From the UHGV virus genome UHGV-1472620: DNA of 39,677 nt; one strand, written 5' to 3'. Shown in pieces: positions 1-39,677 of the stretch; position 1 is the first letter of the stretch; each line of letters begins with the position of its first letter. The translations under genes were made by a program, and so were the position numbers. The notes beneath the pieces were generated by a model. That model did not search any database, was not told where the DNA came from, and was given only the letters and a program-made list of their open reading frames with translations. Source of the DNA: a virus.

Positions 1-17
1 AATCATTCCCACTCAAT
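1..17. repeat. attL core direct repeat AATCATTCCCACTCAAT
   Basis: Exact 17-nt identity with 39661-39677; may extend beyond the window edge. Confidence 0.8.
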
Positions 18-127
18 TATTTACGGATACCATAACCAATTGAGTGATAACATTTTTCCAAAGATGAATTTTTCTCGTACCGTTTTATATACCGTCACCG
101 GAAATCAGTACCATGAAAAATGCCATG

Positions 128-610
128 CTATCTGGTCAGGGTGTCGTACTGTTTTTCGCAGACTCTTCCGGCTTCGGCTGCCCGGTCAGCATACTCTGCC
201 AGTTGTCTATTTCTCTCGAGAGATTTGCTGAACACGTCGGCAAGCAAAACTCCGGTGTCTGCGGCTGACGACCCAGCGCCGACAATGGCGTTATAGTGCC
301 TGAGCTGCTCACGGATGGCAACGAGCTGTTGCTGCAACCGGCCAGCGCGAGCGGCAGCATCAAGAGCATCATTGCGCGCCTGGTCGATCCTCTGCTGCGC
401 TTCACGTTCATTGATCGATTTCTCCTGTTCGTAGTGCTGACGAATTCTCTCATCTTCGGTTTTGCGGTCTTCTTTCGCCTGTGCATACCCAGCGTCGTAC
501 TGACGACTGCCGTGCACATTCCAGGCAACAACTCCTGATATGACCAGAACAGCAAGCACCGCCATGATAATCAACTGTTTACGGTATGCTTTTACGAATG
601 ACCAGATCAT
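128..610 (-). CDS. Rz-like i-spanin
   Basis: N-terminal TM helix then charged coiled-coil region; last gene of lysis cassette; ATGA start overlap with endolysin stop. Confidence 0.6.
136..411 (-). CDS. Rz1-like o-spanin lipoprotein embedded in Rz in another frame
   Basis: Alternate-frame ORF inside Rz with basic n-region, hydrophobic core and lipobox LAGC ([26 protein letters not shown]); start codon uncertain. Confidence 0.5.
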   Translation of the reverse strand: MNVKRSRGSTRRAMMLLMLPLALAGCSNSSLPSVSSSGTITPLSALGRQPQTPEFCLPTCSANLSREIDNWQSMLTGQPKPEESAKNSTTP

Positions 611-1236
611 ACAGCCAGCACCTTACTGGCAGTGACGTACCGCGCGCGCCGGTCGTCGATGCCATTCCTGCCACCATTGATAATCAGAGTTACACGTGCA
701 ATATCGCCGGTATACTTCATGCAACCTTTGCTGGAGAAGAACCACGCCGCGCTACGAGCCGCGTATTCGTCCTGCGCCAACAGTTCAGGATTCTCCAGCA
801 GGTCCACTTTCAGGCCGTTTCCGCAATCACGATAGTTATTCAAACCGGTAATCTGGATAAGTCCGCGGCCACGGTAATTCCAGCCATCGCCGGGGGCATT
901 GTTCCCCATGCGTTTGCTGTACACCAGATTGGCAATCGCTCGCTGGCGCTCGAGTGGCAATGGTGGTTCACCAGCATGGCGACCCAGTGCATTAGCCTGC
1001 CCCTGAGTGAGACGCCCAGCCCGAACGAAGTTAGCCAGTCCGCTGACACTGTAGTTGAAATTCTCCTGCAACCTGGTGAAGCCCCCAGACTCATGCCCGA
1101 CTTGAGCAATAAACATTGCCTGATCTTCTGCTTTGCTGATACCAAACTCTTTCATCGCAGAAGTTATATGCGAGAACCAGCGTGCGGCCAGCGCCTCGCT
1201 AATACCAGCAGCTCGCTGGAATTGTTTAATCTCCAT
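607..1236 (-). CDS. Endolysin, glycoside hydrolase family 19 (chitinase-like) fold
   Basis: Motifs [23 protein letters not shown] and AARSAAWFF match GH19 signatures; ATG at 1236 is the internal Met of the 286-aa track ORF. Confidence 0.85.
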
Positions 1237-1534
1237 GTTTAGACCTCGATATTTTGAAAATCTGAACAACGTTACCGCGTGTTTTAATAACCGCGGCAAG
1301 CATGACAGCGTTGATAATGACCTCAGATAAATCCACAGCCATTGGCGTGCGTAACCAGATTGCATAGACGACACGAACAGGCATACTGGCCGCAGCAACA
1401 ATAAGGAAATAAGCAAGCCACCCTCCCCATCTTCGATGTTGAGAGCCGTTACGCCGGAATGTGACAACGCGAATTGCTATGCCAGTACAAATAACTGCAT
1501 TGGTGATAAGCAAAAAAAACTCATGCGTTACCAT
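1226..1534 (-). CDS. Holin-like membrane protein
   Basis: About 100 aa with three hydrophobic segments, immediately upstream of endolysin. Confidence 0.5.
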
Positions 1535-1934
1535 CGTCTTTTCTCCCCGGAATTAAATCGCGTGGATTGTCTGAACGGTGGTAGAGCCATATACCAATAC
1601 GCACAGCGACAATTGCTGACACGAATGCGCCAGCAGAGAAAACAATCCCTTTTTCAAAAGAGTCCTGCGTGATGGTAGGGATCAGGCTGGCTATGCCGAT
1701 AAGAATTGATGCTGCTGGTTTGTAGAAAAGAAGTCCACAGAGAAAGCTAAGCATCGATAAGAGTACGCGACGATGAATTGGGTACTCTACCGCAGAGGTA
1801 ACAAAAATTACCGCACCAGCAAGAGCACCGAGCGCCACCTCTGGCGGAACGCCTACGATAACTGCAGCAAGAGAGCTCACACTAAGCCATTGATTTAAAG
1901 AATCAGTAGTTAGATGGGCTGACATAATGAACAC
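1521..1934 (-). CDS. Small multi-TM membrane protein (second holin or antiholin candidate)
   Basis: 137 aa, several hydrophobic helices, first gene of lysis cassette. Confidence 0.4.
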   Translation of the reverse strand: MFIMSAHLTTDSLNQWLSVSSLAAVIVGVPPEVALGALAGAVIFVTSAVEYPIHRRVLLSMLSFLCGLLFYKPAASILIGIASLIPTITQDSFEKGIVFSAGAFVSAIVAVRIGIWLYHRSDNPRDLIPGRKDDGNA

Positions 1935-2154
1935 CGTTTATTACACATAACAATCTCCTTACTATTGAAGATTCACACATAATAAACCATTTAAGGATAA
2001 TAGTTACCTCAAAACGCTGTATTTCTACCTTCTACGGCAATGAAAATTTCGTTCAGAAAATGGTCTAGTGTACCTCTCAGTCACAATTAAAGAAGAAAGA
2101 AGCCGAACTTACTTCGTAATAAGCAAGCCGGCTACTAAGATTAATCCTCAATAT

Positions 2155-4911
2155 TTAGCTACTTTCAAGCATTGCAAGACGTGATTCTATTTTTTCGATT
2201 CTTCTACGCAAATAAGCTGACTCAAGCCATAAACACTGGTCAGTACGGATACCCCACCTATTTCCAGCCTTGCAAACCAGAGTTCGCTCTTCTGTTTCGT
2301 ATTCTTCTTCCATCTCAATTTCGACGCCATCCACAACTTTAGTGATCATCCTTACCGCCATCACTGGCGCGTATTTATCATCCCATTCATCGTAACAGAG
2401 AAGGCCAAATCTGGTTCCATCAATCCCATGCGCGAGGAAAGTGTCTCTCACTTGTTGTGCTATAACACCAAAATGCCAGCGGGCACCATCTCCCTTTTCC
2501 CTGACGGCATCAAGCCAGCGAAAAGCTACAATCCTGATATCTCCCCATGCATCCAGAATTGCATCACCTTCATAACCACGAGACATATACAAGCTGAGCT
2601 CACTTGTACTAATCGGTTCACTTTTTTCTCTACCATCTGATGTGTTTATCGAACCGTTCGCAGAATAAACCTGTGCCCATCTAAATGATGGTGCACCAAG
2701 AGATTTGCTGTTATCAATAATTGGTGAAAAATTACCTTTAATGGCAATATTTCCAGAGTCGCCGAATACATTAATAACTGCAGAGTCATCACCATGGTTT
2801 TTTACGCTTAAGTTTCTTGATGAAATATTTATATCTTTGTTATATCCACTAACATTAATCCATCTTTTACCATCAGTGTGATACCCGTAAATATTTCCGT
2901 CTGATTGTTCGTCAGGTGACTCTCTAAGAACAATAGCATCTGCTCCAGACGACCATTGTATTTTTGTATCTGTAGGCCTCCAGTTCTTTATAATGAACGA
3001 ACCATCAGTAAACTCCGTTTTTATTTGTCTATTGTCTACAAATGCGTCTCTTGGTTTAAACTCACTTGTGTTAACGCTGCTCTGAAGATCAGAAGCAAAA
3101 AATCTAAGATTTCCTGTATAACCCTGAGTCTCGGTCAGGTTATACGCAATCATAATTCCATTTTCAAACTCAGATGATGTTATTTTAACATCACGGCAAT
3201 CACCAAAAATGCAATTTCCTTTATCAAAGGTTGTTTGAGCTTTGAATTTATCAAACCTTAAATTACGAACAGGGAAACCATCAACCTCTAATGCAAAGGA
3301 TGCAGGAAGGCCAAAGTATTCTGATGGCTTACCTGATGTATGATCAAGAGTAGTGGCTACTGTATTCTCAAAAACAGTCCCGCTAAAATTATTACCAATT
3401 GACGGAAACCTGATTACACTTATTGTACCTTGTATTTCAGGAGAAATACCAGATAGTGTGATGTTAGTTCCATCAAATGATGCATCTGAATACGTATATA
3501 CTGATTCACTGCCAGCAATTTTAAACTGTTTAACTGAAGTTATTCTCATCGACTTTTTATGTTTAAATGTCACTGAGCTTTCAGTATTACTTACAAGATC
3601 AATCTGAGGGCTATTCCTTATCGCGATCCCTGACTGGACATAAACGTTATTAAAGTGCGTTTTTTCAGGATTTCCCTTCATTGAAAGGCTCCCGTCATTT
3701 TCTGTCAGTAGTAGTCCTTTTACCCTCCAATAGCCGACAATCTGTACGTTATCAATAACTGAATCACAGCTATCGTATACATGCAACCCTATATCCCAGT
3801 CATCACCCAATGAATAAGAATCAGGGTTATTGTATCCTTCAATACCATTTTTACTTACCATTATTCTCAGGTTGCGTAACTGTGATGCCCTGTTGATACT
3901 AACAGCTACGCTCATGGCTTTTGGTGTAGCAGGAGTAACACCTACAGAATCTTCATTTGTAAACTCAGTGAACTTACAAGATATCCCTTCAACAATTTTA
4001 ACTGGTCTTTCATTAGAGATGTTAAAAAAATATTTGTTTTTTTCTCCATCACCAGTAAATACAAGATGGGTTCCTTTACTCCAACTTTTTAATAATCTTT
4101 CAGGCGCTGGTCTATATGTATCCCAATAATCAATGCCATCACCAATTAATGACACTCCAGGAGGCACATCTATGTTCTTAGAAATCATCCATTTACCTGC
4201 AGGTATTCTAACGACACTTGCACCAGAATTTATCGCATTAATTAACCATTCAGACGCATCAACTTCAAAATTTAATGCAGCATATCTTTGCTCAAACGGA
4301 ACAAAATCAAGAGCGTTAACGTTATCCCGCATCTTATCCTGGAACGTTCGGTATACTGCTCCAGAACCATACTGAATAAACCAACCAAAACCACCAACAA
4401 CTCCGGCGATTGCAGCATCAACATAATTGCGCATTGATCGATTATTTACAGCATCCTGCTCAAATGATGGATCTGCAAGGTTAGAAATTTTGTTTTGCTT
4501 TGCATCGTAATATTTTGCAAGCAAAGATGGTTTCATCAATGCACGTCTGAACCACCCAAAACATTGCTGGATCAGCATCGTCAGGTAGTCAAAGGCATCT
4601 TCATGCACTTCGGGGAAAAATTTTCCCTGATTGCGAAGGTCTGTCTCCTGCACTACATCAAGCACACGATCTATCGTAATTCGCCATCCAGTAGCAAGCG
4701 GAGACGGAAGAACCACAGAACCGCCACTATAAGTGCCCGCCCCAGTTACCGTATAACCGGTATCCAGAACCAATTCTGTTACGTTTCCGTTCAGATCAGA
4801 CACCTGAACAACCAGGTCTGATTTTCTGAAAATTCGAAAAGTATACGGAAACGATGTCGTAACGCCGTTACCGGTGTATTCGTTGTGGTCAACTTCGGTT
4901 GAGACCGTCAT
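2155..4911 (-). CDS. Tailspike / tail fibre with C-terminal intramolecular chaperone (peptidase S74-like) domain
   Basis: 918 aa; C-terminal SDGREKSEPI ... HFGVIAQQV pattern typical of self-cleaving chaperone domains; AT-rich central region. Confidence 0.8.
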   Translation of the reverse strand: MTVSTEVDHNEYTGNGVTTSFPYTFRIFRKSDLVVQVSDLNGNVTELVLDTGYTVTGAGTYSGGSVVLPSPLATGWRITIDRVLDVVQETDLRNQGKFFPEVHEDAFDYLTMLIQQCFGWFRRALMKPSLLAKYYDAKQNKISNLADPSFEQDAVNNRSMRNYVDAAIAGVVGGFGWFIQYGSGAVYRTFQDKMRDNVNALDFVPFEQRYAALNFEVDASEWLINAINSGASVVRIPAGKWMISKNIDVPPGVSLIGDGIDYWDTYRPAPERLLKSWSKGTHLVFTGDGEKNKYFFNISNERPVKIVEGISCKFTEFTNEDSVGVTPATPKAMSVAVSINRASQLRNLRIMVSKNGIEGYNNPDSYSLGDDWDIGLHVYDSCDSVIDNVQIVGYWRVKGLLLTENDGSLSMKGNPEKTHFNNVYVQSGIAIRNSPQIDLVSNTESSVTFKHKKSMRITSVKQFKIAGSESVYTYSDASFDGTNITLSGISPEIQGTISVIRFPSIGNNFSGTVFENTVATTLDHTSGKPSEYFGLPASFALEVDGFPVRNLRFDKFKAQTTFDKGNCIFGDCRDVKITSSEFENGIMIAYNLTETQGYTGNLRFFASDLQSSVNTSEFKPRDAFVDNRQIKTEFTDGSFIIKNWRPTDTKIQWSSGADAIVLRESPDEQSDGNIYGYHTDGKRWINVSGYNKDINISSRNLSVKNHGDDSAVINVFGDSGNIAIKGNFSPIIDNSKSLGAPSFRWAQVYSANGSINTSDGREKSEPISTSELSLYMSRGYEGDAILDAWGDIRIVAFRWLDAVREKGDGARWHFGVIAQQVRDTFLAHGIDGTRFGLLCYDEWDDKYAPVMAVRMITKVVDGVEIEMEEEYETEERTLVCKAGNRWGIRTDQCLWLESAYLRRRIEKIESRLAMLESS

Positions 4912-5015
4912 GTTAAATCTCCAGATAGTCGCAGCACCCGTTGCGCCGCATATCTGGTTATTCTATTACCTGGAAAACCACATATGGATAGAAAGGCTGT
5001 AAATACGAATAGATA

Positions 5016-5030
5016 TTACCTTTCAGGTAA
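5016..5030. promoter_or_regulatory. Operator-like palindrome TTACC-N5-GGTAA
   Basis: TTACCTTTCAGGTAA, about 75 bp upstream of ATG 5107. Confidence 0.55.
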
Positions 5031-5106
5031 TTTGCAAAACGTGCTGGATAGCAAACAAATTATTTGCTACTGTATAAATATACAGTTATTGCATGGAGAA
5101 GATAAG

Positions 5107-5364
5107 ATGCAGCGGTATCACTATCCACTGGAAGACGGATTTACCGAAAGGATTCACACGCCGGGAGGCGTCAGGTCACTGGTGGAGGGATCGCACTTGA
5201 TGAAATTACTCCGGGATCTCGATAAGGATGGATTTAATGTCGATGGCCCACTTGCCGAACTGACTGCACTGATTAACTACGTCACCAGCTCACAGATGTC
5301 TATGCAGGATCTGCAAACACATCTCGACTATTGTGCCGAACAATTACGAAAACAAACCACATAA
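5107..5364 (+). CDS. Stand-alone paralog of the antirepressor C-terminal domain
   Basis: RIHTPGGVRSLVEGSHLMKLLRDLDKDGFNVDGPLAELTALINY...DLQTHLDY aligns with C-terminus of Bro-N protein 6819-7511; start chosen downstream of the operator. Confidence 0.5.
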   Translation: MQRYHYPLEDGFTERIHTPGGVRSLVEGSHLMKLLRDLDKDGFNVDGPLAELTALINYVTSSQMSMQDLQTHLDYCAEQLRKQTT

Positions 5365-5370
5365 AGAAAA

Positions 5371-5386
5371 GGCCGCGAAAGCGGCC
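5371..5386. terminator. Hairpin GGCCGCGAAAGCGGCC between convergent genes
   Basis: Perfect 6-bp GC stem with GAAA loop between stops at 5364 and 5388; identical hairpin at 8716-8731. Confidence 0.55.
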
Positions 5387-5387
5387 A

Positions 5388-5894
5388 TTAACAGTCGTAA
5401 AATTCTGGGTCCCACAAACTTGCATCGCGCGGCATGGATTCTAACTTTTTCAGCCGCAAAATTCTGTCACACTCGACAACTAATTTTTGCTTCTGCTCGT
5501 CAATTTCTACTGTCTTATGCGCTGGTTCATCCCAATAATCCAGAAGGAAGGCATGGCGTTCAGATGTGACCAGATAAATCACATACACGTCACTGGTTGG
5601 GATCTTTTTATGCTTGTTAGTGGTCTTGTCTTTCTTCCCAGACGCCCAGTTTTTCCAGCATTGTTCCGTACCGCTCTCACCAAACTTGTCAGTATAGTTT
5701 CCGATGTTTAAGTGAACGTGGCGTATGTGATATTCCAGCATCTCTTTCGGTGGATCTCGAAACAGAGTGTCCTTTCCGAAATCCTTATGATGACCGTAGC
5801 GCCAGTGATCTATGAACGCGTTTTTGATAGGTATTAGCTCAGGGTCCTTCCCAAAAATTCCAGGGTGAACCAACCCCTGGAATTTATTCGGCAT
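5388..5894 (-). CDS. Toxin-like protein A, paralog of 7954-8466 (possible YafO-like family)
   Basis: Shares HWRxGHH, GKDTLF, VHxNIG, CTEQCW and YWDxPAH motifs with protein B; ATG overlaps upstream partner stop by 11 nt. Confidence 0.6.
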   Translation of the reverse strand: MPNKFQGLVHPGIFGKDPELIPIKNAFIDHWRYGHHKDFGKDTLFRDPPKEMLEYHIRHVHLNIGNYTDKFGESGTEQCWKNWASGKKDKTTNKHKKIPTSDVYVIYLVTSERHAFLLDYWDEPAHKTVEIDEQKQKLVVECDRILRLKKLESMPRDASLWDPEFYDC

Positions 5895-6399
5895 CGTCGT
5901 AGAGCTCCTGAGCCATGTCTTCAGCAGTGCGTGCAAACATCCTTCGAGAAATTGCATGCGATTTTTCAACAGACATCTTTGGTACTTCTCGCATTACAAC
6001 CTCATGTGACGCTGTAGGCTTAAAAGATGACTTATAATACCGCTTTATCATCTCAACTAATTGCTGCTTATCCTTGGAGCGTCCAGTTTCGATTAGCCTT
6101 GACTCGTAAGGTCGCATTATATTCGTTTGACATGAGGCACGATGAAGCTTATCTGCCAAGATTCCTTCAAAAGATGTGCCCCGGATTTTTAACAATGCCT
6201 CATGCTGGTCGTATTCAGTGATGAACATAACCGGGTATTTTTGCTCAACTTCTTCATCATGAATCCTGATGGCATTGGCAGTTGCTATGGCAGCAGCATA
6301 AGCGGCTGCTTCAATCACCATCTTTTTCTCTTTTTCTTTTTCAGACTTTTTCAAGGTCAAGCGTCTATGCCTCATCGCTGCAACTCTCTTCGTGTTCAT
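5884..6399 (-). CDS. Upstream partner of protein A (antitoxin-like), basic N-terminus and acidic C-terminus
   Basis: Overlaps A start; ends ELYDDAE; track ORF starts at TTG 6411, ATG at 6399 preferred. Confidence 0.5.
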   Translation of the reverse strand: MNTKRVAAMRHRRLTLKKSEKEKEKKMVIEAAAYAAAIATANAIRIHDEEVEQKYPVMFITEYDQHEALLKIRGTSFEGILADKLHRASCQTNIMRPYESRLIETGRSKDKQQLVEMIKRYYKSSFKPTASHEVVMREVPKMSVEKSHAISRRMFARTAEDMAQELYDDAE

Positions 6400-6536
6400 G
6401 GGCACCCCCAACTACCTCTAGGGTAAACATTCTATCGAAAGTATACGCATACTGGCAAAAAAATAGGCAGGCATTTTCTGAAATGGGATCAATCAAACCA
6501 CATAGGGTTGAAATAACGTGAGTTATGCATTTATTA

Positions 6537-6551: not shown

Positions 6552-6818
6552 ATTTACATCGCACTCCTCTTGTGCCATAGTAATCGGGCACTGGCAAAAT
6601 CCAGTGCCGGGATTGGTCTCCCGGATTACTACAGAGGCACATATGCCGCATAAGCGGTTTTTTTATGTGTAAAGCGCACCTATTCTATGGTGGGCTGTGT
6701 GGGGGCACCGAAAGGTGCGCCGGGTTCCTTTGTAGCCGGTAAGACCAACTCTGCACAGTTCACCACCATCTGATTGGTCTCAGCGGTGGTGATTAACCTA
6801 ACTACAAAGGTGATCGCC

Positions 6819-7511
6819 ATGAATACCAAACCTTCCATCTTTTCCTTTGAGTCATCCTGCCAGATCCGTATGTTCATGATTGACGGAGAACCTTGGTTTG
6901 TCACCAAAGATGTGTGCAATGCTTTGAATATTGATGTTACACAAGCGAGAAAACTTGATAAAAAAGGCTGGAACAAAAAGGGGCTGTATTCAATACAGAC
7001 CCCTGGTGGAATACAAGAACTATCCATCGTTTCAGAATCAGGTCTCTACATCCTTATTCTGCGTTGCAAAGAGGCAATGACTGAGGGAACGAGAGCATTC
7101 AGATTTCTTGAATGGGTTACAGGTGAGGTTCTTCCTCAGATCCGCCGCACCGGAAGTTACATTAAAAACTCGCTCCCGCAGGAAGAACGCATAAAGATGG
7201 TTGCCGACCAGGTAGCCAACGCCACGGCGTCAGCAGTGATGCAGGCAATGAAGATAGAGAACAAAACCTACAGTGCCCCGCTGAAGCCCGGCTACCGCAG
7301 TCTGATTCATTCTCCGTCTGGTGTTCTCGGCCTGACGGAGAACTCACTGCTGATGAATCTGCTGAACCAGTTGCAGGACGACGGGCATGATGTATCGGGC
7401 GCGGCGGCGGAACTGACCACCATGTTCTGCTACATTGTCGGTGTGAGCAAATGCCTGCGTGATATCCAGACGCACGCGGAGTACATCAACGACAAGGCAG
7501 GGTTCTTCTGA
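6819..7511 (+). CDS. Antirepressor with N-terminal Bro-N domain
   Basis: N-terminal FESSCQIRMFMIDGEPWFVTKDVCNALNI ... SESGLYILILRCKE resembles Bro-N/Ant; AAGGTGA Shine-Dalgarno before ATG 6819. Confidence 0.75.
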   Translation: MNTKPSIFSFESSCQIRMFMIDGEPWFVTKDVCNALNIDVTQARKLDKKGWNKKGLYSIQTPGGIQELSIVSESGLYILILRCKEAMTEGTRAFRFLEWVTGEVLPQIRRTGSYIKNSLPQEERIKMVADQVANATASAVMQAMKIENKTYSAPLKPGYRSLIHSPSGVLGLTENSLLMNLLNQLQDDGHDVSGAAAELTTMFCYIVGVSKCLRDIQTHAEYINDKAGFF

Positions 7512-25362: not shown

Positions 25363-25439
25363 GTGGCATTAGCTCAGTTGGACAGAGCAACCGCCTTCTA
25401 AGCGGTTGGTCGCAGGTTCGAATCCTGCATGCCACACCA
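25363..25439 (+). tRNA. tRNA-Arg, anticodon UCU
   Basis: Cloverleaf folds by eye: acceptor GTGGCAT/ATGCCAC, D-stem GCTC/GAGC, anticodon stem ACCGC/GCGGT with loop CTTCTAA, T-arm GCAGG-TTCGAAT-CCTGC, encoded CCA. Confidence 0.9.
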
Positions 25440-31205: not shown

Positions 31206-32006
31206 TTACTTGATAAATCCTGCCGCCTTTCCCCGCCTGTATTCCTCCATCAGCCACTGTGCCGGTGTTATTCCCCCCAATGTGGCGGCGTTAGGCATAC
31301 ACCCGAAACTTCGCCCTGGTGGATGGTAAACGTCTCTCCCTGTGTCCGGAGGCGTACTCATGGGTTCTGGCTTTGCCTGTATGCTGATCACCGGATCGGG
31401 TATCTGCTGTCCGGAAGCTACCTTTTTCGCCCAATCATCGAGCAGCCTGCGCGCGTGTTTCTCAACCTCAATCTCGCTAAGCTGGCGCTGATACATTGCA
31501 CGGCGGGTATCACATACGACCCAGTACATAACCGGATGTCGCCACGGGAATCTTTCGGGACCACCAGGATATAAACTTTTTTCCTTGCTGTACCGGTGAA
31601 ACTCCGCCATCACATCGTCAATGGTGACGCCAAGAACCATCTTGCTGTCTTTACACCACTTGATGAATTGCCCTGGCGACGGCCAGAACGGAGATTCACT
31701 GGCGCGGGCGTGGCGCATACCAGCAGAAACCTGTTCACGGGTTCGGATCCCCCCTTCGGCAAACGCAGCAATCCACTGCTGTTTTGCAGCAACTTCCTGC
31801 TCTGGAGTCTTCAGGTTGGTTACTACTGCCGCCGGAAACAGTTGTTTCAGCTGTTTGAAAAGGGCATCAACAAGCCTCTCTGCTGACATGTTCACCACAT
31901 TGTCATTGTTGACGTACTGATGCTCATAACCTGACATGCGAGAAAGGGCTTCTCCGTCACGGTTTTGTATCGCGGTAAAAACGTTGTTCACAAGAAATCC
32001 TCCCAC
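31206..32006 (-). CDS. Replication protein P-like (helicase loader)
   Basis: REQVSAGMRHARASESPFWPSPGQFIKWCK aligns with lambda P (EQVNAGMRVARRQNRPFLPSPGQFVAWCR) as recalled. Confidence 0.75.
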   Translation of the reverse strand: MGGFLVNNVFTAIQNRDGEALSRMSGYEHQYVNNDNVVNMSAERLVDALFKQLKQLFPAAVVTNLKTPEQEVAAKQQWIAAFAEGGIRTREQVSAGMRHARASESPFWPSPGQFIKWCKDSKMVLGVTIDDVMAEFHRYSKEKSLYPGGPERFPWRHPVMYWVVCDTRRAMYQRQLSEIEVEKHARRLLDDWAKKVASGQQIPDPVISIQAKPEPMSTPPDTGRDVYHPPGRSFGCMPNAATLGGITPAQWLMEEYRRGKAAGFIK

Positions 32007-32803
32007 GCTTCAGGGCTGTTCCAGTGCGGAACGTTGTTATCAGGTAATGTTGATTGCTTCTGTCTGCTAATCTGCAGCCGCCTTGCCAGCTTCTGCTCCC
32101 ACTGTGCCTGATGGTATGCCTTACCCTCAGCCATCCAGTAAATTCTGAACTCTGCAAGCTCCTGTGCCGTTGGCAGACTGTCCAGGTAGATCCCCTGCAA
32201 TGAGCTTTTCCGAAGAAAGTCATCTGATGGCTGCCATTGTTCATGCATGACAAATTTGCCTAATTGCCCTGGCCCACCAGGAGGAACAAAGTTATTCATC
32301 ACGGCGTTGTTTGCGCCGGGGTCATGAGGCACAGAATCCCCGCTTTTTGTCCTGCTCTCCCTCTCTTGGTTAAATGACTGGTTATATGACTGGTTCTGGA
32401 TCCCGTTTTTGGGATCATTCAACATCCCGTTTTTGGGATCATTCAACATCCCGTTTTTGGGTATATTCCCGTTTTCGGTAACATTACCGTTTTCGGGTTC
32501 ATTACCCCCTTCCCGGTTGCCTTTAATGTTCCCGTTTTTGGTTATATTAAGAGAGAAAACCCGCACTCTTTTCGTCGCACCCTTTCTCTCTCCGGTATCT
32601 GAAATAAGCCCCATTTTCATGAGCGATATAAGCCCGGCCTGCACGGTTTTTTTATTCAGGCAAGTGTCTTTAACGAGGCGTTCTATGCTGGGGTAGCAGA
32701 GGTTATATTCATCGGCTCTGTCAGCCATCGAGAGCAGTATGAGCTTTAATGACGAGCTACCTGGATCTGTCTCCCAGGCCCAATCTGTTGCATGTCTGCT
32801 CAT
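31988..32803 (-). CDS. Replication initiator O-like
   Basis: N-terminal HTH-like domain, Asn-rich repeat linker encoded by the iterons, then C-terminal domain; immediately upstream of P-like gene. Confidence 0.7.
   Translation of the reverse strand: MSRHATDWAWETDPGSSSLKLILLSMADRADEYNLCYPSIERLVKDTCLNKKTVQAGLISLMKMGLISDTGERKGATKRVRVFSLNITKNGNIKGNREGGNEPENGNVTENGNIPKNGMLNDPKNGMLNDPKNGIQNQSYNQSFNQERESRTKSGDSVPHDPGANNAVMNNFVPPGGPGQLGKFVMHEQWQPSDDFLRKSSLQGIYLDSLPTAQELAEFRIYWMAEGKAYHQAQWEQKLARRLQISRQKQSTLPDNNVPHWNSPEAWEDFL
32373..32550. repeat. Origin of replication iterons inside O-like gene
   Basis: Direct repeats TCCCGTTTTTGGGATCATTCAACA x2 (32401-32448) plus at least four degenerate CCGTTTT(T/C)GG copies and ATGACTGGTT x2. 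Confidence 0.75.
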
Positions 32804-32818
32804 GATTAATCTCCGCTA

Positions 32819-33400: not shown

Positions 33401-33436
33401 AGCTATTGCCTGATATTTATTTCAGATAATAAATAT

Positions 33437-33499
33437 TCACCCATAAGGTAACAAAAATCAAGGATAGTTACCTATGAGGTGCATTTACCTGTTGGGTAA
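33437..33499. promoter_or_regulatory. Immunity region operators (three sites)
   Basis: TCACCCATAAGGTAA, TTACCTATGAGGTGC and TTACCTGTTGGGTAA between divergent Cro-like and repressor genes. Confidence 0.65.
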
Positions 33500-33554
33500 T
33501 ATTGCTTTAAATTGAATCATCTACTGATTCATATATGAGGCGATTTTCCAGAAA

Positions 33555-34139
33555 ATGAAAAGTATCCAGGACGTCCGCAGGCAAAATCTCAACGACTTGA
33601 TCGACCGTGAATTCAATGGTGTTCAGACGCGGATGGCAGAAAAACTTGGAACTCAGGCAAATCTGGTAAACCGCTGGGCTCTTGGCAAGAAGGTTATCGG
33701 CGACCAGGTTGCGCGAAAAATTGAAGCTGCCGCCAATAAACCCCGTAACTGGCTTGATATCGATCGCTCGCTTTCTCAGGAAGGTTTTCAGCCTGTCGGC
33801 CCAAGCGACATTGGTCAGCTGGCGGCTCACAACCTGGAACGCTGGATGAGCGAAAGCCGCGACCTTTCAACGCAGGGAAAACTTCACCGCGCATCCGGCG
33901 TCGCCCAGGTGACAATCAGTCGCCTGTTAAACAATGAGGTCAGCGTTTCCATTTCCACCCTGGAGAATGTTGCATCCGCATTCGGGCGTCACGGATATGA
34001 ACTACTGATTCACCCGCACGACCCTGCGACTATCAACTATGACCGCTCGCGCTACGCATTGTTACCCGAAACCGAGAAAGCAAAGATCGAAAGTTACATT
34101 GAATTTGTCATCAACCAGAACGAAAAAAGCAAACAATAA
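33555..34139 (+). CDS. Prophage repressor with tandem HTH domains and no peptidase domain
   Basis: Two Cro/C1-type HTH-like segments; no Ser-Lys autopeptidase region seen. Confidence 0.7.
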   Translation: MKSIQDVRRQNLNDLIDREFNGVQTRMAEKLGTQANLVNRWALGKKVIGDQVARKIEAAANKPRNWLDIDRSLSQEGFQPVGPSDIGQLAAHNLERWMSESRDLSTQGKLHRASGVAQVTISRLLNNEVSVSISTLENVASAFGRHGYELLIHPHDPATINYDRSRYALLPETEKAKIESYIEFVINQNEKSKQ

Positions 34140-34159
34140 AACTATATTTTTCAGTAAGT

Positions 34160-34186
34160 AAGCCGCCTCATGGCGGCTTTTTTATT
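34160..34186 (+). terminator. Intrinsic terminator after repressor gene
   Basis: AAGCCGCC-TCAT-GGCGGCTT then TTTTATT. Confidence 0.7.
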
Positions 34187-34196
34187 GCCAGATAGA

Positions 34197-34273
34197 TTAC
34201 CTTACGGGTAATTTTTTTAACTCATATCTATTGACACCAAACCAAATAAGCATAATTATTACCTCAACGGTAA
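34197..34273. promoter_or_regulatory. Early-left promoter region with two operator palindromes
   Basis: TTACCTTACGGGTAA (34197-34211) and TTACCTCAACGGTAA (34259-34273) flanking a TTGACA -35-like hexamer at 34241. Confidence 0.55.
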
Positions 34274-34292
34274 CAGACCGAGGTAACAAGTT

Positions 34293-34445
34293 ATGCAGTG
34301 GAAAATCATCAACGGTTGGTACTGCGTTACTGCATGCGGATTCATGAGCTGGAAGTTCCGCACCTTACAGGAAGGCATTAAGTGGGCTTTCGTCAGCAAA
34401 GAAGCTCGCGATGTAGCCAACGATAATGAGATATGGGAGGGCTGA
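34293..34445 (+). CDS. Small ORF (50 aa), first gene of early-left operon
   Basis: GAGGT Shine-Dalgarno before ATG; stop 2 nt before next ATG; not in the ORF track. Confidence 0.3.
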   Translation: MQWKIINGWYCVTACGFMSWKFRTLQEGIKWAFVSKEARDVANDNEIWEG

Positions 34446-34447
34446 TA

Positions 34448-34747
34448 ATGAACGTTAATCAGCAGAAAAATCTTCAAAAAATCATGCTGGCATTCGACAA
34501 GGACTACCGCCTGTCAGAACAGCTATATGACCGACAAGTTGAACTGATTGAGAGCATCCGACTTCATCAACTGTCCTCAACTTTCGACGTTGTAACAGGC
34601 AAAGGCGTTCGTCAGGAAGTGCTGGAGGCTGCTAAAGACAGCCCTGAGTTCGAAGAACTGATGGATGCCTACCGGCGCGAGGCAATGGCAATTATAGCGC
34701 GCTGGGATCTGGCGGATCAGCTTGATGGGCAGAGGGACGCGGCATGA
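34448..34747 (+). CDS. Hypothetical early protein
   Basis: 100 aa from ATG 34448; overlaps exonuclease start. Confidence 0.45.
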   Translation: MNVNQQKNLQKIMLAFDKDYRLSEQLYDRQVELIESIRLHQLSSTFDVVTGKGVRQEVLEAAKDSPEFEELMDAYRREAMAIIARWDLADQLDGQRDAA

Positions 34748-35643
34748 TGCGGAACGCTGGAATCATGGATAGAACAAAATACATCGGAGGAAGCGATGTT
34801 GCAGGGATTCTTGGAATTAGCCCATGGCGCACCCCGCTTGAGGTTTATCTGGATAAGGTCCAGCCACGTGTCAAACCAGTAGACCAAAGCAAGCAGAAAG
34901 TTTTCACGCGTGGCCAGCGTATGGAGCCATACGTAATAGACCTGCTTTCTGAGGAAACAGGGATGGAAATCGTTCATCGCGGAAACCGCTATATCCACCG
35001 TGATTACGATTTTATTGCAGCTGAGATCGATGCAGAAGCAGCGTCAGGCGAGAACATTGAGATCAAAACAGTTAGTCCGTTCAAGGCCAAAGAATGGGGA
35101 GAAATCCAGACAGATGCAATTCCTGTGCATTACACGGCCCAGGCCATGCACGGGTTGATGGTTACAAACAAACAGGTATGCGTTTTCGGTGTGCTTATCG
35201 GTGGCGACGACTTCCGAATCTATCGGGTTGAGCGTGATGAAGAAACTATCCAGGCGATCTTAGAAAAAGAAATCGCTTTCTGGGACCGAGTGAAAAATCT
35301 TAACCCGCCGGAAGCTACCAGCGTAAGCGATGTATCGCTGATGTTTGAGAAAGATGCCGGGACAAGTATCGAGGCTGACGGAAAGGCACTCGCACTATTC
35401 AACGATCTACGAGACATGAAATCACGCAGAAAATCACTGGAAGAAGAAATAGCTATATCAGAAGAGAAGCTGAAGATGTACATGCAAGAGCACTCAGTCC
35501 TGACCCTGGACGGAAAGCCGCTCTGCACATGGAAATCTCAGATCAGCAACAGATTCGACCAGAAGCTATTCCAGTCAGTACACCCTGAGTTATTCGAAAA
35601 ATTCAAAACAACAACGACACAACGCGTCTTCAGAATGAAGTAA
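34744..35643 (+). CDS. YqaJ-like recombination exonuclease
   Basis: N-terminal GGSDVAGILGISPWRTPLEVY pattern; immediately upstream of RecT. Confidence 0.75.
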   Translation: MMRNAGIMDRTKYIGGSDVAGILGISPWRTPLEVYLDKVQPRVKPVDQSKQKVFTRGQRMEPYVIDLLSEETGMEIVHRGNRYIHRDYDFIAAEIDAEAASGENIEIKTVSPFKAKEWGEIQTDAIPVHYTAQAMHGLMVTNKQVCVFGVLIGGDDFRIYRVERDEETIQAILEKEIAFWDRVKNLNPPEATSVSDVSLMFEKDAGTSIEADGKALALFNDLRDMKSRRKSLEEEIAISEEKLKMYMQEHSVLTLDGKPLCTWKSQISNRFDQKLFQSVHPELFEKFKTTTTQRVFRMK

Positions 35644-35652
35644 GGAGAAAAA

Positions 35653-36675
35653 ATGTCTATCAATGCACTTAAGGCAGCGGCTACCGGTAACCAAGTTGCA
35701 CATCATAATGAGAAACCAACAACTCTGGCCGGACTTCTGGCAGACCCAAAAATTAAAGCTCAGATGGCTTTGGCACTTCCAAAGCACATGACAGCAGACC
35801 GTCTGGCGCGCATAGCAACCACAGAGATCAGAAAGGTTCCAAAACTTGCATCATGCGACCAAGCCAGCTTCCTGGGGGCAATTATGCAATGTGCCCAATT
35901 GGGTCTTGAACCAGGCGGAGCTCTTGGACACGCTTACCTGATACCGTTCGACAAACGCCAGAAAGTAAATGGAAGATGGGAAACCGTATCTACAGAAGCA
36001 CAGCTGATTATCGGCTATCGCGGAATGATTGACCTTGCCCGCCGCTCTGGGCAGATCCTGAGTATCTCGGCTCGTACCGTACATACAAACGACAAATTCA
36101 GCTACTCATACGGCCTGGAAGAAACGCTCGAGCATTTACCTTGCGAAACAGGTGACCGCGGAGAATTAACGCACGTTTACGCCGTTGCACGACTGAAAGA
36201 TGGCGGAGTCCAATTTGAAGTTATGAGCCGGGCAGACGTTGAGAAAGTTCGTGCACTGAGCAAAGCCGGTAGCAGTGGCCCATGGGTTGATCACTTCGAT
36301 GAGATGGCTAAAAAAACAGTAATTCGCCGACTGTTCAAATATCTTCCTGTTTCTATTGAAATGCAGAAGGCTGTTGTTATGGATGAGCGCGCTGAAGCTG
36401 GACTTAGCCAAGATAACGCAGCTGTTATCACTGGTGAATATTCCGTAGTTGACGATGAGCGTCAACACCTGTCGCCAATTTCAGATTCAGAACGAGAAGA
36501 AGCTCGAGAATATATCATCGCGATACTTAATAGCCTGGATCCATCTGCTGAAGATGCAAAAACGATGTTCAAGCGCGCTGAAAATGAAATTAACACCATG
36601 GCTGAAAAGCTCGGTGATGAATATCACCAAAAATTCATGATGACGCTTAACGATATGCGTCCAGAATTCGAGTAA
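35653..36675 (+). CDS. recT: RecT-family single-strand annealing protein
   Basis: 340 aa with RecT-like N-terminal region; paired with exonuclease. Confidence 0.8.
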   Translation: MSINALKAAATGNQVAHHNEKPTTLAGLLADPKIKAQMALALPKHMTADRLARIATTEIRKVPKLASCDQASFLGAIMQCAQLGLEPGGALGHAYLIPFDKRQKVNGRWETVSTEAQLIIGYRGMIDLARRSGQILSISARTVHTNDKFSYSYGLEETLEHLPCETGDRGELTHVYAVARLKDGGVQFEVMSRADVEKVRALSKAGSSGPWVDHFDEMAKKTVIRRLFKYLPVSIEMQKAVVMDERAEAGLSQDNAAVITGEYSVVDDERQHLSPISDSEREEAREYIIAILNSLDPSAEDAKTMFKRAENEINTMAEKLGDEYHQKFMMTLNDMRPEFE

Positions 36676-36724
36676 CCACCACCGCGGCGCCACGTGCGCC
36701 GCACTGCAACCAAGAGAGGTATTC

Positions 36725-36973
36725 ATGAAAGGTGCATTAGGTAAGAAAGAACTCCTGGCGGTGGTGCCACTGTCATGGAGCACTATCGACCGTATGGAGC
36801 GCGCAGGGGAATTTCCTAAACGCTGGTATATCACCGATAAACGCTGCGCATGGAACCGTGATGAAGTTGAGCGTTGGCTTGATGAACGTCAGGCAGCAAG
36901 CCCGGCAGAGTTCCAGGGTAAAAAGCCTCCTGTTCAGCAACGTGTATATCGTCCCGTGAGCAACGCTGCATGA
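36725..36973 (+). CDS. AlpA/excisionase-like HTH regulator
   Basis: 82 aa; GEFPKRWYITDKRCAWNRDEVERWL pattern; GAGAGG Shine-Dalgarno. Confidence 0.55.
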   Translation: MKGALGKKELLAVVPLSWSTIDRMERAGEFPKRWYITDKRCAWNRDEVERWLDERQAASPAEFQGKKPPVQQRVYRPVSNAA

Positions 36974-37082
36974 GTGCGCTGCTAAGGCACTGGAGCAAAT
37001 GGTCAGGATGGTACTTATTCCTGGCCTCTGTTTCAGCATGGCTTTATCTGCTGGCATTAATTTTCAGAGAGGGTTGGATTAA

Positions 37083-37382
37083 GTGAGAAAGTTAAGCCGA
37101 CTTGAAAAATATCACATGAATAAGGTTTCAATGCGCAGTCCGTCAAAGATTGTCGCCGTTACTCCTGCGGCGATAGAGATCGAAAAACGCGCGATTGAAA
37201 GAGAGAAAAAAGGGCAATTCCGCATTGCCGCTCACCTTTGGCTTCAGTGTATGGATGTTGCTTCTGGTGATGTTGAACGTGCAAGGATCGCGGTTCGCAG
37301 GGACCAATGTATCACAAAAGGTAACGGCCTTCGCCGTGGCGACTATAGCGGCATAGGATGTTGTGGGGTGGTTTATGACTAA
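37083..37382 (+). CDS. Hypothetical protein
   Basis: 99-aa ORF ending at methylase start. Confidence 0.35.
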   Translation: MRKLSRLEKYHMNKVSMRSPSKIVAVTPAAIEIEKRAIEREKKGQFRIAAHLWLQCMDVASGDVERARIAVRRDQCITKGNGLRRGDYSGIGCCGVVYD

Positions 37383-38025
37383 GAAATACACACTAATCTA
37401 TGCAGATCCACCCTGGGTATACCGGGACAAAGCCGCAGATGGTAATCGCGGTGCCGGTTTTAAATATCCGGTTATGAGTGTGCTGGATATCTGCCGCCTT
37501 CCTGTGTGGGATTTGGCCGATGAAAACTGTCTGTTGGCCATGTGGTGGGTGCCAACACAACCACTCGAAGCACTAAAAGTTGTTGAAGCCTGGGGATTCC
37601 GTCTGATGACGATGAAGGGCTTCACGTGGATAAAATGTGGTAGTCGACAACCAGATAAACTGGTTATGGGTATGGGACACATGACTCGCGCCAATAGTGA
37701 AGATTGCCTGTTTGCGGTAAAGGGAAAACTACCTACGCGCATTAATGCAGGGATCGTTCAGTCATTTACCGCACCGCGGCTTGAGCATTCAAGAAAGCCA
37801 GATATCGTTCGTGAAAAACTTGTGCAATTATTAGGCGATGTTTCTCGCATTGAACTGTTCGCCCGCCAGACGTCTCATGGCTTCGATGTTTGGGGTAATC
37901 AGTGCGAAGACCCGGCAGTGCAACTACACCCTGGATACGCGTTGGATATTGGCGGATTAACAAATGCATTCAGCAATGCTCCGCTGTCACCAACAGACAT
38001 CCAGGGGCGGGAGCGTGCTGCATGA
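37363..38025 (+). CDS. MT-A70-family DNA N6-adenine methyltransferase
   Basis: Catalytic DPPW motif (IYADPPWVY) near N-terminus. Confidence 0.8.
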   Translation: MGWFMTKKYTLIYADPPWVYRDKAADGNRGAGFKYPVMSVLDICRLPVWDLADENCLLAMWWVPTQPLEALKVVEAWGFRLMTMKGFTWIKCGSRQPDKLVMGMGHMTRANSEDCLFAVKGKLPTRINAGIVQSFTAPRLEHSRKPDIVREKLVQLLGDVSRIELFARQTSHGFDVWGNQCEDPAVQLHPGYALDIGGLTNAFSNAPLSPTDIQGRERAA

Positions 38026-38216
38026 ACAGGGCATCACCAGCAGATTTAAGAAAATGCCTTGAAACTGCAAACATGCTTGCACACAGCGGGATCAGGTTTG
38101 TTCCAATTCCCGCTGTCACTGATGCTGAATTTGCAACACTGTCAGCAATATTCGAAAACAAAATTGAATCACTGGCAGCAGAAGCAGAGATGGAAGAAAA
38201 TCAGCAGAACTATTAA
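38022..38216 (+). CDS. Small hypothetical protein
   Basis: ATGA overlap with methylase stop; 64 aa. Confidence 0.35.
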   Translation: MNRASPADLRKCLETANMLAHSGIRFVPIPAVTDAEFATLSAIFENKIESLAAEAEMEENQQNY

Positions 38217-38219
38217 ACG

Positions 38220-39470
38220 TTATTCCCCCGCCATCCACTTCTCAAACTTCGACGGGGAGAACGGAATCAGATCCGTATGCTCCCCGTCAATCCATGAATC
38301 AATCATATCGGCCCACTGCTGCAACATGTAGGCGCGCTGTCTGGCGTATTCCGCTTTGTTATATACGGCGCGCACACCTTTCTGCTCATGTGCCAGAGCC
38401 TTTTCAATCCAGTCTGAAGGATAACCAGCCTCATGCAACAACGTACTGGCTGTACGGCGCATATCATGTACAGTGAAGTCCTGAATATGCTCACCATCTT
38501 CATTTATTATTTTCACCGTTCTGTCGATCAGAGAGTTCAGCGCGGCATTAGATAATGGCTTCCGGATATTGTAACGACCAGGAACCAGATATTCACTTCC
38601 ACCAGCGCACATCTGCAACCCGACCAATATATCCTGTGCCTGTTTAGGCAGGTAAATAACGTGCGCCCGGCTTCCCTTCATGCGGTCTGGAGGAATTGTC
38701 CATGTCCATTTTTTAAAATCTATTTCATCCCACGTTGCATTGGTGAATTCGCCCTTACGAACCATAGTGATAAGCACCAGTTTTAAAGCCATTTTCATAG
38801 TGCCCATAGCACCAATGGCATCCAGCGTGCGGAAGAACAGGCCAATTTCTTCTGGTGTCAGTGTTCGCTCTCGTGGTTTAAATATGGCGATAGACGAAGG
38901 TTTAATGTCAGCCGCAGGATTAAACAAACCATGACCACGGTCATTGGCGTGACGGTATACGCTACTGATGATCTCCCTGGCCTGCACTGCTGTTGCCCGG
39001 CCACCGCGTTCGACAATCCGGTCACACAAATCACGAACCATCGATGTGGTAATTTCAGCCATCATTTTATTGCCAAGAACCGGAAGTATGTCACGGTCGA
39101 TCACCGCCTGTTTCATTGCGCGGGTACTGTCAGCCAGGATGACGTGTTTCATATAACTGTCGGTATGTACCGCAAACGTCTCGGCACCACGAATCTTTTT
39201 GATACCGTCACGTTTAGCCGCAGCCGGTGACTGGCCTGCTTTAAGCAGCTTCTTTGCAGCAATCAGTTCTTCTCGCGCTTCTGCCAGGCTGATACCGTCA
39301 CGCCCATACTGCCCGATTACCAGTGTTTCGCGGCGACCGTTGATACGGTAGTCATAGCGAAACGAGACCGTGCCTGACGTAAGCACAGCTACATACAGCC
39401 CGTCACGATCGGAAACCTTGTACAGTTTGTCCTGCGGCTTGAGGTTTTTTAATTTTGTATCGGTAAGCAC
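38220..39470 (-). CDS. int: Tyrosine integrase
   Basis: 416 aa; C-terminal HDMRRT and downstream Tyr region typical of phage integrases; adjacent to attR. Confidence 0.9.
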   Translation of the reverse strand: MLTDTKLKNLKPQDKLYKVSDRDGLYVAVLTSGTVSFRYDYRINGRRETLVIGQYGRDGISLAEAREELIAAKKLLKAGQSPAAAKRDGIKKIRGAETFAVHTDSYMKHVILADSTRAMKQAVIDRDILPVLGNKMMAEITTSMVRDLCDRIVERGGRATAVQAREIISSVYRHANDRGHGLFNPAADIKPSSIAIFKPRERTLTPEEIGLFFRTLDAIGAMGTMKMALKLVLITMVRKGEFTNATWDEIDFKKWTWTIPPDRMKGSRAHVIYLPKQAQDILVGLQMCAGGSEYLVPGRYNIRKPLSNAALNSLIDRTVKIINEDGEHIQDFTVHDMRRTASTLLHEAGYPSDWIEKALAHEQKGVRAVYNKAEYARQRAYMLQQWADMIDSWIDGEHTDLIPFSPSKFEKWMAGE

Positions 39471-39512
39471 AATTCACCCGTATAGAAACCATTTTCATGA
39501 CGGCATGAGAGT

Positions 39513-39527
39513 ATACCTTTAAGGTAA
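39513..39527. promoter_or_regulatory. Operator-like palindrome upstream of int (one mismatch)
   Basis: ATACCTTTAAGGTAA about 45 bp upstream of int ATG. Confidence 0.45.
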
Positions 39528-39580
39528 TACCGTCACCTGTACCGACGAAAAATATGGTGTAGAGTGAATAGAAATGAATA

Positions 39581-39616
39581 CATAAAAACAAAAACCCTCT
39601 GTAAAAACAGAGGGTT
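39581..39616 (-). terminator. Intrinsic terminator reading leftward from attR
   Basis: Hairpin AACCCTCTG-TAAAAA-CAGAGGGTT; on minus strand followed by TTTGTTTTTATG. Confidence 0.6.
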
Positions 39617-39660
39617 AAATTAGTATCTGAATAGGAATGAGTTGCTATGAGTTAGCTGTT

Positions 39661-39677
39661 AATCATTCCCACTCAAT
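39661..39677. repeat. attR core direct repeat; reverse complement encodes IEWE-stop (likely guaA 3' end)
   Basis: Exact copy of 1-17; reverse complement ATTGAGTGGGAATGA = I E W E stop. Confidence 0.8.

Follow-up and report, generated by a model that had tools for sequence, protein, structure and literature searches.

Prophage identity and host flanks

Comparison with phage genomes, annotated lysogens and an empty site makes it very probable that the 39,677-nucleotide stretch of viral DNA analyzed here (UHGV-1472620; hereafter the window) is a complete prophage of the phiV10/epsilon15 type (genus Uetakevirus) that extends from attL to attR and resides in the 3′ end of guaA; this is the best explanation overall. 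Genome comparison with phiV10-type phages revealed synteny and a DNA identity of 96 to 98%. The differences are those of cargo and mosaic regions: within the first 25 kb, 48 to 82% is common to the window and these phages, at 96 to 98%. The window has no identical match among the complete genomes examined. Its best match, Combat2C1, shows a length difference of 280 bp and a divergent block around 28.9 to 33 kb. Host flanks were taken from two close relatives, the annotated E. coli lysogens FDAARGOS_1257 and Combat2C1. An int-guaA junction of this type was found in 547 of 5,426 complete E. coli genomes (~10%).

In the two annotated lysogens, the gene immediately adjoining the right end of the window is guaA, encoded on the minus strand with guaB upstream; the location of guaA had been proposed from the sequence. 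The gene product contains the Pfam domains GATase and GMP_synt_C, and the guaA stop codon corresponds to window positions 39663 to 39665, within attR. To the left of attL, FDAARGOS_1257 and Combat2C1 carry yfgI and the native bidirectional guaA/yfgI terminator. The flanking sequence of both lysogens thus contains a guaA gene ending at attR, which was the check suggested with the original prediction.

The 17-bp attachment core

The 17-bp direct repeat AATCATTCCCACTCAAT is present exactly at both ends of the window, at positions 1 to 17 (attL core; left copy of the identity segment, with its flank known from the two lysogens) and 39661 to 39677 (attR core). The right copy is the same as the published attP/attB core attgagtgggaatgatt (PMC9782041), and the published core in the form ATTGAGTGGGAATGATT also occurs exactly at both window ends. 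In an attP alignment, the block GTAAATAATTGAGTGGGAATGAT is invariant in eight phages. As predicted, the reverse complement of the repeat, ATT GAG TGG GAA TGA TT, reads IEWE followed by a stop codon; according to the ends of the RefSeq guaA coding sequences of the two lysogens, positions 39663 to 39677 (minus strand) are the last four codons and the stop codon of guaA.

A chance match, a duplication introduced by assembly or the target-site duplication of a transposon could in principle also give a short terminal repeat, and the shortness of the 17-mer is all that favors such an origin. No further copy with up to two mismatches was found in the window, and shuffled sequences gave an expectation of zero. 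The repeat also ends sharply: the preceding base is A in the host flank versus T in the phage arm, and the bases that follow are GGT or AGT in the host versus TAT in the phage. Since the flanking bases diverge at once, an assembly artifact, which would have extended the repeat further, is excluded. Moreover, hundreds of independent complete genomes carry these same junctions, the empty site in E. coli K-12 contains one copy of the 17-mer, located at the guaA stop codon as foreseen for an unoccupied site, and the core has been published with experimental proof. We therefore rejected these three origins, to which we assign a negligible probability.

Based on these sequences, a tyrosine integrase would act on attP of the phage and attB of the bacterium to recombine them, and attB comprises the last 12 coding bases of guaA, its stop codon and two more bases. 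Because phage and host are identical over the 17 bp, the reading frame and C terminus of guaA remain unchanged after integration. The prediction that the last codons are preserved was borne out: GuaA of the lysogen and of K-12 are both 525 amino acids long and identical at 524 of 525 positions, the one differing residue being internal, and their C termini are the same. After integration, the native terminator is left with yfgI at attL, 39.7 kb away from guaA.

Integrase, predicted arm sites, and neighboring genes

The integrase gene (38220 to 39470, minus strand; 416 amino acids) starts 190 bp from the core and is located on the same strand as guaA. Its product shows 99% identity to phiV10 Int and 87% to epsilon15 Int and contains the Pfam domains Arm-DNA-bind_3, Phage_int_M and Phage_integrase, all above the cutoff. 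The motif residues in VRKGE (R238), MKGSR (K265), HDMRRT (H335, R338), LAHEQ (H361) and AVYNK (Y370), assigned as catalytic by motif rather than by structural alignment, are invariant in the three integrases. By its domain content and motifs, the protein is a lambda-type tyrosine integrase with an arm-binding domain.

The 10-mer ATACCGTCAC occurs in five exact copies, compared to 0.04 expected. One is found on the lysis-gene (Rz) side of attP (89 to 98, plus strand) and four on the int side, i.e., at 39527 to 39536 (plus strand) and within int at 39202 to 39211 (plus strand), 39292 to 39301 (plus strand) and 38949 to 38958 (minus strand). The same 10-mer is labeled as an "integrase" protein-binding feature in the epsilon15 record; here and below, statements on epsilon15 sites rest on its GenBank feature table and on later papers. 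From their sequence and distribution, the repeats on both arms are predicted to be arm-type integrase sites.

Two further genes near the attachment sites are of note. An AlpA-family small DNA-binding protein (36725 to 36973, plus strand; Pfam Phage_AlpA, 24.2 bits versus a cutoff of 21) is a candidate excisionase, i.e., recombination directionality factor. The lysis operon ends with a gene (128 to 610, minus strand) for an Rz-like spanin, identified by Pfam DUF2514 and by annotation in relatives; this gene reads toward attL and, in the free phage, across attP into the terminator described below.

Inverted repeat next to attL

Next to attL, the original prediction had noted a 9-bp inverted repeat and proposed it as an integrase core-type site. 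The repeat itself was confirmed: its arms, CACTCAATT (10 to 18) and AATTGAGTG (38 to 46), are exact and form the core of an imperfect repeat with arms at 10 to 26 and 30 to 46, of which 14 of 17 positions are complementary. No other short-range inverted repeat in the window is as long as the one from 10 to 46. The assignment as a core-type site was not supported, given the spacing of the arms and the variation of the distal arm. Core-type integrase sites flank an overlap of 6 to 8 bp. The 9-bp arms are 19 nt apart (3 nt for the 17-nt arms), and the second arm lies outside the core, wholly in the phage arm, so that the half-sites do not flank such an overlap inside the identity segment, and the geometry of the 9-bp repeat does not fit a core-type site.

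A better fit to the core-type layout is AATCATT-CCCACTC-AATTATT at positions 1 to 21. The near-palindromic heptamers AATCATT (1 to 7) and AATTATT (15 to 21) are candidate core-type half-sites around a candidate 7-bp overlap, CCCACTC (8 to 14, and 39668 to 39674 in attR; GAGTGGG on the guaA strand), and strand exchange would probably occur inside this central GAGTGGG.

Most likely, the palindrome beside attL is a pair of integration host factor (IHF) bending sites, as judged from its similarity to the IHF consensus. It contains two inverted consensus-like elements, ACTCAATTATTTA at 11 to 23 (plus strand) and ACTCAATTGGTTA at 33 to 45 (minus strand), each with one mismatch to the consensus WATCAANNNNTTR, and two IHF sites are predicted at the homologous positions in the record of epsilon15. 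Across 73 attL/attP variants, the conserved columns of the repeat are TCAA-N4-TTA, a pattern in agreement with the IHF consensus.

Binding of the core-binding domain of the integrase, or of an excisionase, at 10 to 46 instead of IHF is unlikely. In its favor, the repeat exceeds all others of its kind in the window in length and extends into the core, and its distal arm is much better conserved than the surroundings, reading CA[C/G]TCAATT in most of the 73 variants and CA[C/G/A/T]TCAATT overall. However, apart from the spacing, which is unlike that of core-type sites, the perfect repeat depends on a base that is variable, only six of the nine bases are kept in epsilon15, and the most diverged variants lose CAC but retain ATCAA-N4-TTA, a perfect IHF consensus. 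Two IHF sites thus remain the preferred reading.

A phage-borne terminator downstream of guaA

The prophage supplies a terminator on the minus strand, as had been predicted for positions 39581 to 39616. We delimited it to 39583 to 39616, where AACCCTCTGT-TTTT-ACAGAGGGTT, followed by TTTGTTTTTA, forms a unidirectional intrinsic terminator 46 nt downstream of the guaA stop codon. The stem (39616 to 39593) has 10 bp, including five G-C pairs, and a loop of 4 nt, with a hairpin energy of −15.9 kcal/mol; the tail TTTGTTTTTA reaches 39583, and the U-tract tail reads UUUGUUUUUA. The structure is kept in 12 attP variants and in every relative examined, and a rho-independent terminator is annotated at this place in the GenBank records of phiV10 and epsilon15.

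Alignment of the stem-loop with the K-12 guaA/yfgI terminator revealed 25 of 27 identical bases, and none of 2,000 shuffles reached the alignment score. Beyond the core, this 27-nt terminator is the only part of the phage arm that aligns with the host attB; the spacers (46 versus 26 nt) do not align. From its structure and position, the phage terminator most likely stops the guaA (guaBA) transcript. In this way, it would keep the strong guaBA transcript out of int, which begins 113 nt further on the same strand; the interval from the terminator to int revealed no sigma-70-like promoter.

In the free phage, the terminator would close the lysis operon ahead of int, on the strand that carries Rz/Rz1. 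Its service to guaA would probably be a second use, next to closure of the lysis operon in the free or circular phage. It is possible, though on balance improbable, that the terminator serves the phage alone, ending the late lysis operon before int, and has no selected role in its position after guaA, so that guaA mRNA would end at the terminator or at the upstream hairpin by accident. Its location in attP directly downstream of the Rz/Rz1 genes and on their strand agrees with this, and its retention in a Klebsiella phage, from a type of host perhaps having a different native guaA terminator (GCCCGCG...CGCGGGC, judged from Raoultella and Tatumella genomes and the flanks of IMG/VR prophages), suggests the same. 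On the other hand, the match of 25 of 27 bases is to the native Escherichia guaA terminator, with no shuffle as good, and, relative to the core, the element is placed on the side where attB has its terminator, as expected of a substitute for the host 3′ end that was displaced. The phage role and the host role are mutually compatible.

Comparison with known integration systems

The site, the 17-bp core and the host gene are already published for Uetakevirus (PMC9782041), and the phage terminator is already annotated in the phiV10 and epsilon15 reference genomes. For vB_EcoP_ZX5, the core of attP and attB at the guaA 3′ end was proven by PCR and Sanger sequencing, int also starts 190 bp from the core, and the same core is cited for phiV10 and epsilon15 (PMC9782041). 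Integration and excision PCR, covering the attP circle and the empty attB, has likewise been done for ZX5, a close relative (PMC9782041). The three phages thus share core, host gene and int distance with the window. The attP arms of phiV10 and epsilon15 align base for base with those of the window in the terminator, arm repeats and IHF-like sites; the integration modules of the three phages do not differ from that of the window, and the differences are confined to cargo and mosaic regions elsewhere.

The resistance island GIsul2 and CMGI-3 also integrate at the 3′ end of guaA. Among the IntSXT-type tyrosine recombinases, they belong to the epsilon15 cluster, for which guaA targeting has been described in the literature. 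GIsul2, itself a guaA-targeting island, recombines at GAGTGGGA, the center of the 17-mer (PMC9376610). Unlike the window, both elements are genomic islands rather than phages, with an identity segment of 8 bp in a 19-bp attB, and the likeness concerns the target site. Among at least 121 exact matches of the guaA-end 15-mer listed in GTDB species genomes, 101 end a GuaA-type open reading frame of the form ...KPPxTIEWE*. The matches listed are mostly nonenteric, and no Salmonella or Klebsiella empty site was among them. The use of the guaA end by several kinds of mobile elements is partly explained by this 15-mer, which ends guaA across many bacterial phyla.

Integration into the 3′ end of a protein-coding gene with provision of a replacement end is known from e14 and phage 21, both in icd (Campbell, prophage insertion sites), and P4-type elements integrate into the 3′ ends of tRNA genes. 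As in these cases, attP of the window duplicates the displaced 3′ end and the host gene stays functional. In contrast to e14 and phage 21, only 15 coding bases are replaced here, they are identical to those of the host, and the notable replacement is the terminator.

A predicted core-arm hairpin and possible implications for guaBA expression

In guaA-sense RNA, the phage-arm segment UCAUUCCUAUUCA (39628 to 39640, minus strand) is predicted to pair with the core and stop codon (39663 to 39675) in a 13-bp hairpin that includes three G·U pairs (minimum free energy of the fold, −36.2 kcal/mol; z = −6.9). Over 12 distinct attPs, 98.7% of alignment cells are paired, with adjoining columns variable, and the epsilon15 record has a predicted "RNaseIII" feature overlapping the hairpin. 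Because guaA fixes the 5′ strand of the hairpin, covariation lends it no support: the changes among the distinct attPs are one-sided throughout, and column shuffling is uninformative.

The discovery value of the window is small, with the att site published for the genus and the terminator annotated in reference genomes. It can nevertheless serve as a clean positive control, since a real att site together with its target gene had been named from the sequence alone. Two points are worth annotating, namely the occurrence of the guaA-end 15-mer across many phyla and the resemblance of the phage terminator to the displaced host one.

A more far-reaching suggestion, which we consider quite doubtful, is that the prophage swaps the whole 3′ untranslated end of guaA, bringing a near-copy of the terminator and a conserved strand-specific hairpin, with effects on guaBA mRNA. 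If so, int would also be protected by the terminator against read-through from the host, and the match of the phage terminator to the host terminator would be a record of host DNA captured by an ancestral phage. In the hairpin, phage sequence would be paired with the stop codon of guaA and the four codons before it, and lysogeny could alter the stability, RNase III processing or translation termination of guaBA mRNA and therefore the supply of purine nucleotides.

A phiV10-type element inserted at the 3' end of guaA

By sequence comparison, the first 25 kb of the window matched phiV10-type podophages of the genus Uetakevirus, with 98% identity to EC.W1-9 over 82% of the query and 96% identity to phiV10 over 48% of the query; more remote matches were Salmonella epsilon15 and SPN1S as well as Enterobacter and Klebsiella phages. 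The integrase, a 416-amino-acid ORF on the minus strand (38220-39470), carries arm DNA-binding, integrase central, and tyrosine-recombinase catalytic domains. It is 99% and 87% identical to the integrases of phiV10 and epsilon15, respectively, with invariant catalytic motifs.

The original prediction had interpreted a 17-bp direct repeat as an att core that reads, in reverse complement, as the end of GuaA. The repeat, AATCATTCCCACTCAAT, is exact at both window ends (attL, 1-17; attR, 39661-39677), and no further copies with up to two mismatches were found within the window (0 expected by chance). On the minus strand, it reads ATT GAG TGG GAA TGA TT, i.e., I-E-W-E-stop. Beyond these 17 bp, the bases on the host and phage sides are unlike and the repeat is not extended, which rules out an assembly duplication as its source.

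Of 5,426 complete E. coli genomes, 547 contain the window's right end (38400-39677) at 95 to 100% identity, and among the matches listed, guaA was annotated beneath the match. Two annotated lysogens, FDAARGOS_1257 and Combat2C1, were read closely and show the gene order yfgH, yfgI, prophage, guaA, guaB. As predicted, the host gene to the right is guaA, encoded on the window's minus strand and ending at 39663, within attR. Its last codons are indeed preserved upon integration: the lysogen protein, with GATase and GMP-synthase C-terminal domains, is identical to K-12 GuaA at 524 of 525 residues and shares the end ...KPPATIEWE. At the unoccupied site of K-12, which lacks the prophage, a single copy of the 17-mer was found at the guaA stop, and beyond it lie a spacer of 26 nt, a terminator active in both directions by sequence, and yfgI, which is convergent with guaA; at attL of both lysogens, this spacer and native terminator still adjoin yfgI. 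The Combat2C1 element is 280 bp longer than the window and 99 to 100% identical to it at both ends, with a divergent mosaic block in the early/replication region (~28.9-33 kb). No exact copy of the window prophage was found among the complete E. coli genomes examined.

The guaA interpretation is thus correct, and the att site is one already described for a well-known phage genus. In vB_EcoP_ZX5, attgagtgggaatgatt is both the attP core, 190 bp from the int 5' end, and the attB core at the guaA 3' end; attB, attL, and attR were confirmed by PCR and Sanger sequencing, the attP sites of phiV10 and epsilon15 were stated to share this core, and no growth effect of lysogeny was reported (PMC9782041). 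The window likewise has 190 bp between the int start (39470) and the core (39661). In a tyrosine-recombinase survey, the epsilon15 cluster includes CMGI-3 and related elements, every one targeting the guaA 3' flank. Another integrator at the guaA 3' end is the resistance island GIsul2, which inserts at GAGTGGGA (PMC9376610).

Among the matches listed for exact ATTGAGTGGGAATGA in GTDB species-representative genomes, 101 of 121 were the end of a GuaA-type ORF (KPPxTIEWE-stop), in cyanobacteria, Firmicutes, Bacteroidota, Proteobacteria, and some archaea. This conserved 15-mer is a likely reason why several mobile-element families target the guaA end. Its conservation at the nucleotide level is unusually strong for a gene end.

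Anatomy of attP

The window's phage arms were joined and aligned with those of seven relatives in GenBank, whose hosts span four genera, and 120 IMG/VR junctions were compared further. The alignment contains an invariant block, GTAAATAATTGAGTGGGAATGAT, in which GAGTGGG is flanked by the near-palindromes AATAATT and AATGATT. Core-type sites are usually arranged 7-7-7 in this way, with the overlap region in the middle, and the GIsul2 crossover site falls at the same centre; on these grounds, we propose that strand exchange would occur within 8-14 and 39668-39674. Five copies of the decamer ATACCGTCAC are present where 0.04 would be expected; one (89-98) is on the lysis side and the other four are on the side of int. 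These decamers are likely arm-type integrase sites, and identical ones are annotated as integrase binding sites in the epsilon15 record. An AlpA-family ORF (36725-36973) is a candidate excisionase.

A 9-bp inverted repeat beside attL (10-18 and 38-46) had been suggested as an integrase core-type site. The repeat is exact and forms the middle of a longer, imperfect one (10-26 and 30-46, 14 of 17 positions); no other short-range inverted repeat in the window reaches this length. The core-type reading is probably wrong, since a gap of 19 nt separates the arms (3 nt if the long arms are taken) and the distal arm falls beyond the identity segment. That arm is CA[C/G]TCAATT in most of 73 distinct variants and retains only 6 of 9 positions in epsilon15; the constant columns are TCAA-N4-TTA. 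The two most diverged variants, AATCAATATATTA and AATCAATTGGTTA, match the IHF consensus WATCAANNNNTTR perfectly; the window arms do so with one mismatch each, at 11-23 (plus strand) and 33-45 (minus strand), the same two places where IHF sites are predicted in the epsilon15 record. Two inverted IHF-like sites, which necessarily resemble a palindrome, therefore appear to be the better reading.

A prophage terminator downstream of guaA

It had also been predicted that a minus-strand terminator (39581-39616) ends the host transcript inside the prophage. A scan found a terminator-like hairpin on this strand (stem 39616 to 39593, 10 pairs, loop of 4) with the tail TTTGTTTTTA and a U tract on the minus strand only. 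Its folding energy is -15.9 kcal/mol; that of the guaA terminator in K-12 is -17.8 kcal/mol. The element is conserved in 12 of 12 distinct attP variants within variable surroundings, and its homologs in the phiV10 and epsilon15 records are annotated as rho-independent terminators. While the hairpin itself was found, its effect on the transcript we infer from position: in the lysogen, the guaA stop is 46 nt upstream of the hairpin and the int start codon, on the same strand, 113 nt downstream, and hence the hairpin would end the guaBA transcript and keep it out of int. In the circular phage, the Rz/Rz1 lysis genes precede the same terminator across attP, so it serves the phage as well.

The phage stem-loop (AACCCTCTGT TTTT ACAGAGGGTTTTT) and the E. 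coli guaA/yfgI terminator (AACCCTCTGT TACT ACAGAGGGTTTTT) agree at 25 of 27 bases, and none of 2,000 shuffles gave as high an alignment score; the spacers on both sides of the two terminators gave no match. No mention of this similarity was found in the accessible literature. Raoultella and Tatumella genomes, and some IMG/VR prophage host flanks, have a different guaA terminator (GCCCGCG...). Klebsiella phage BUCT711 nevertheless retains the CCCTCTGT form, and the match is therefore a trait of the phage lineage. The simplest reading is that an Escherichia-like attB region was captured long ago, as is usually supposed for phages that rebuild a displaced gene end.

One IMG/VR attL host flank keeps an E. 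coli-like spacer (TTGACCCTGCACTATGAATGAA) with a different terminator (CCTCCGGCATAGCCGGAGG), and another keeps the E. coli terminator beside a neighbour other than yfgI. The region downstream of guaA seems to be reshuffled among close hosts.

In the guaA-sense RNA, the core from UGAGUGGGAAUGA, stop codon included, pairs with UCAUUCCUAUUCA at 39628-39640 (minimum free energy, -36.2 kcal/mol; z, -6.9). Pairing is kept in 98.7% of cells across 12 distinct attPs, and the hairpin arm is conserved among them, the adjoining ten columns not. Three positions form G.U pairs, making the complementarity strand specific, i.e., at the RNA level; as the opposite strand is fixed by guaA, covariation cannot be demonstrated. 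The epsilon15 record has a predicted RNase III site at this location. Within the finding, only this core-arm hairpin could hold anything new.

Other prophage features

A tRNA-Arg (anticodon TCT; 25363-25439, plus strand) was found by ARAGORN and Rfam and is also annotated in Combat2C1. Tandem repeats at 32367-32506 (24 bp, 2.6 copies, 100% matches; 18 bp, 3.1 copies) lie in a replication-initiator-like ORF (31988-32803, minus strand) that carries a DnaT-like annotation in a relative. These repeats probably represent origin iterons, comparable to those inside the O gene of lambda.

Rfam matches to the Hfq-binding sRNA isrK (6588-6664, 74.7 bits) and a C4 antisense RNA (6683-6770, 78.6 bits) are adjacent on the plus strand, immediately upstream of a BRO-N/antirepressor ORF (6774-7511), and together form a P1/Gifsy-type RNA-controlled antirepressor module. 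The palindrome TTACC-N5-GGTAA (15 nt) occurs in 10 exact copies (0.01 expected), at 5016, 6537, 7584, 25026, 28171, 31092, 31154, 33485, 34197, and 34259, with a one-mismatch copy between terminator and int (39513-39527) that overlaps an arm-type repeat. Three copies flank an HTH repressor-like gene (33555-34139), and the palindrome is probably the phage repressor operator. If so, int and the antirepressor region would also be under repressor control.
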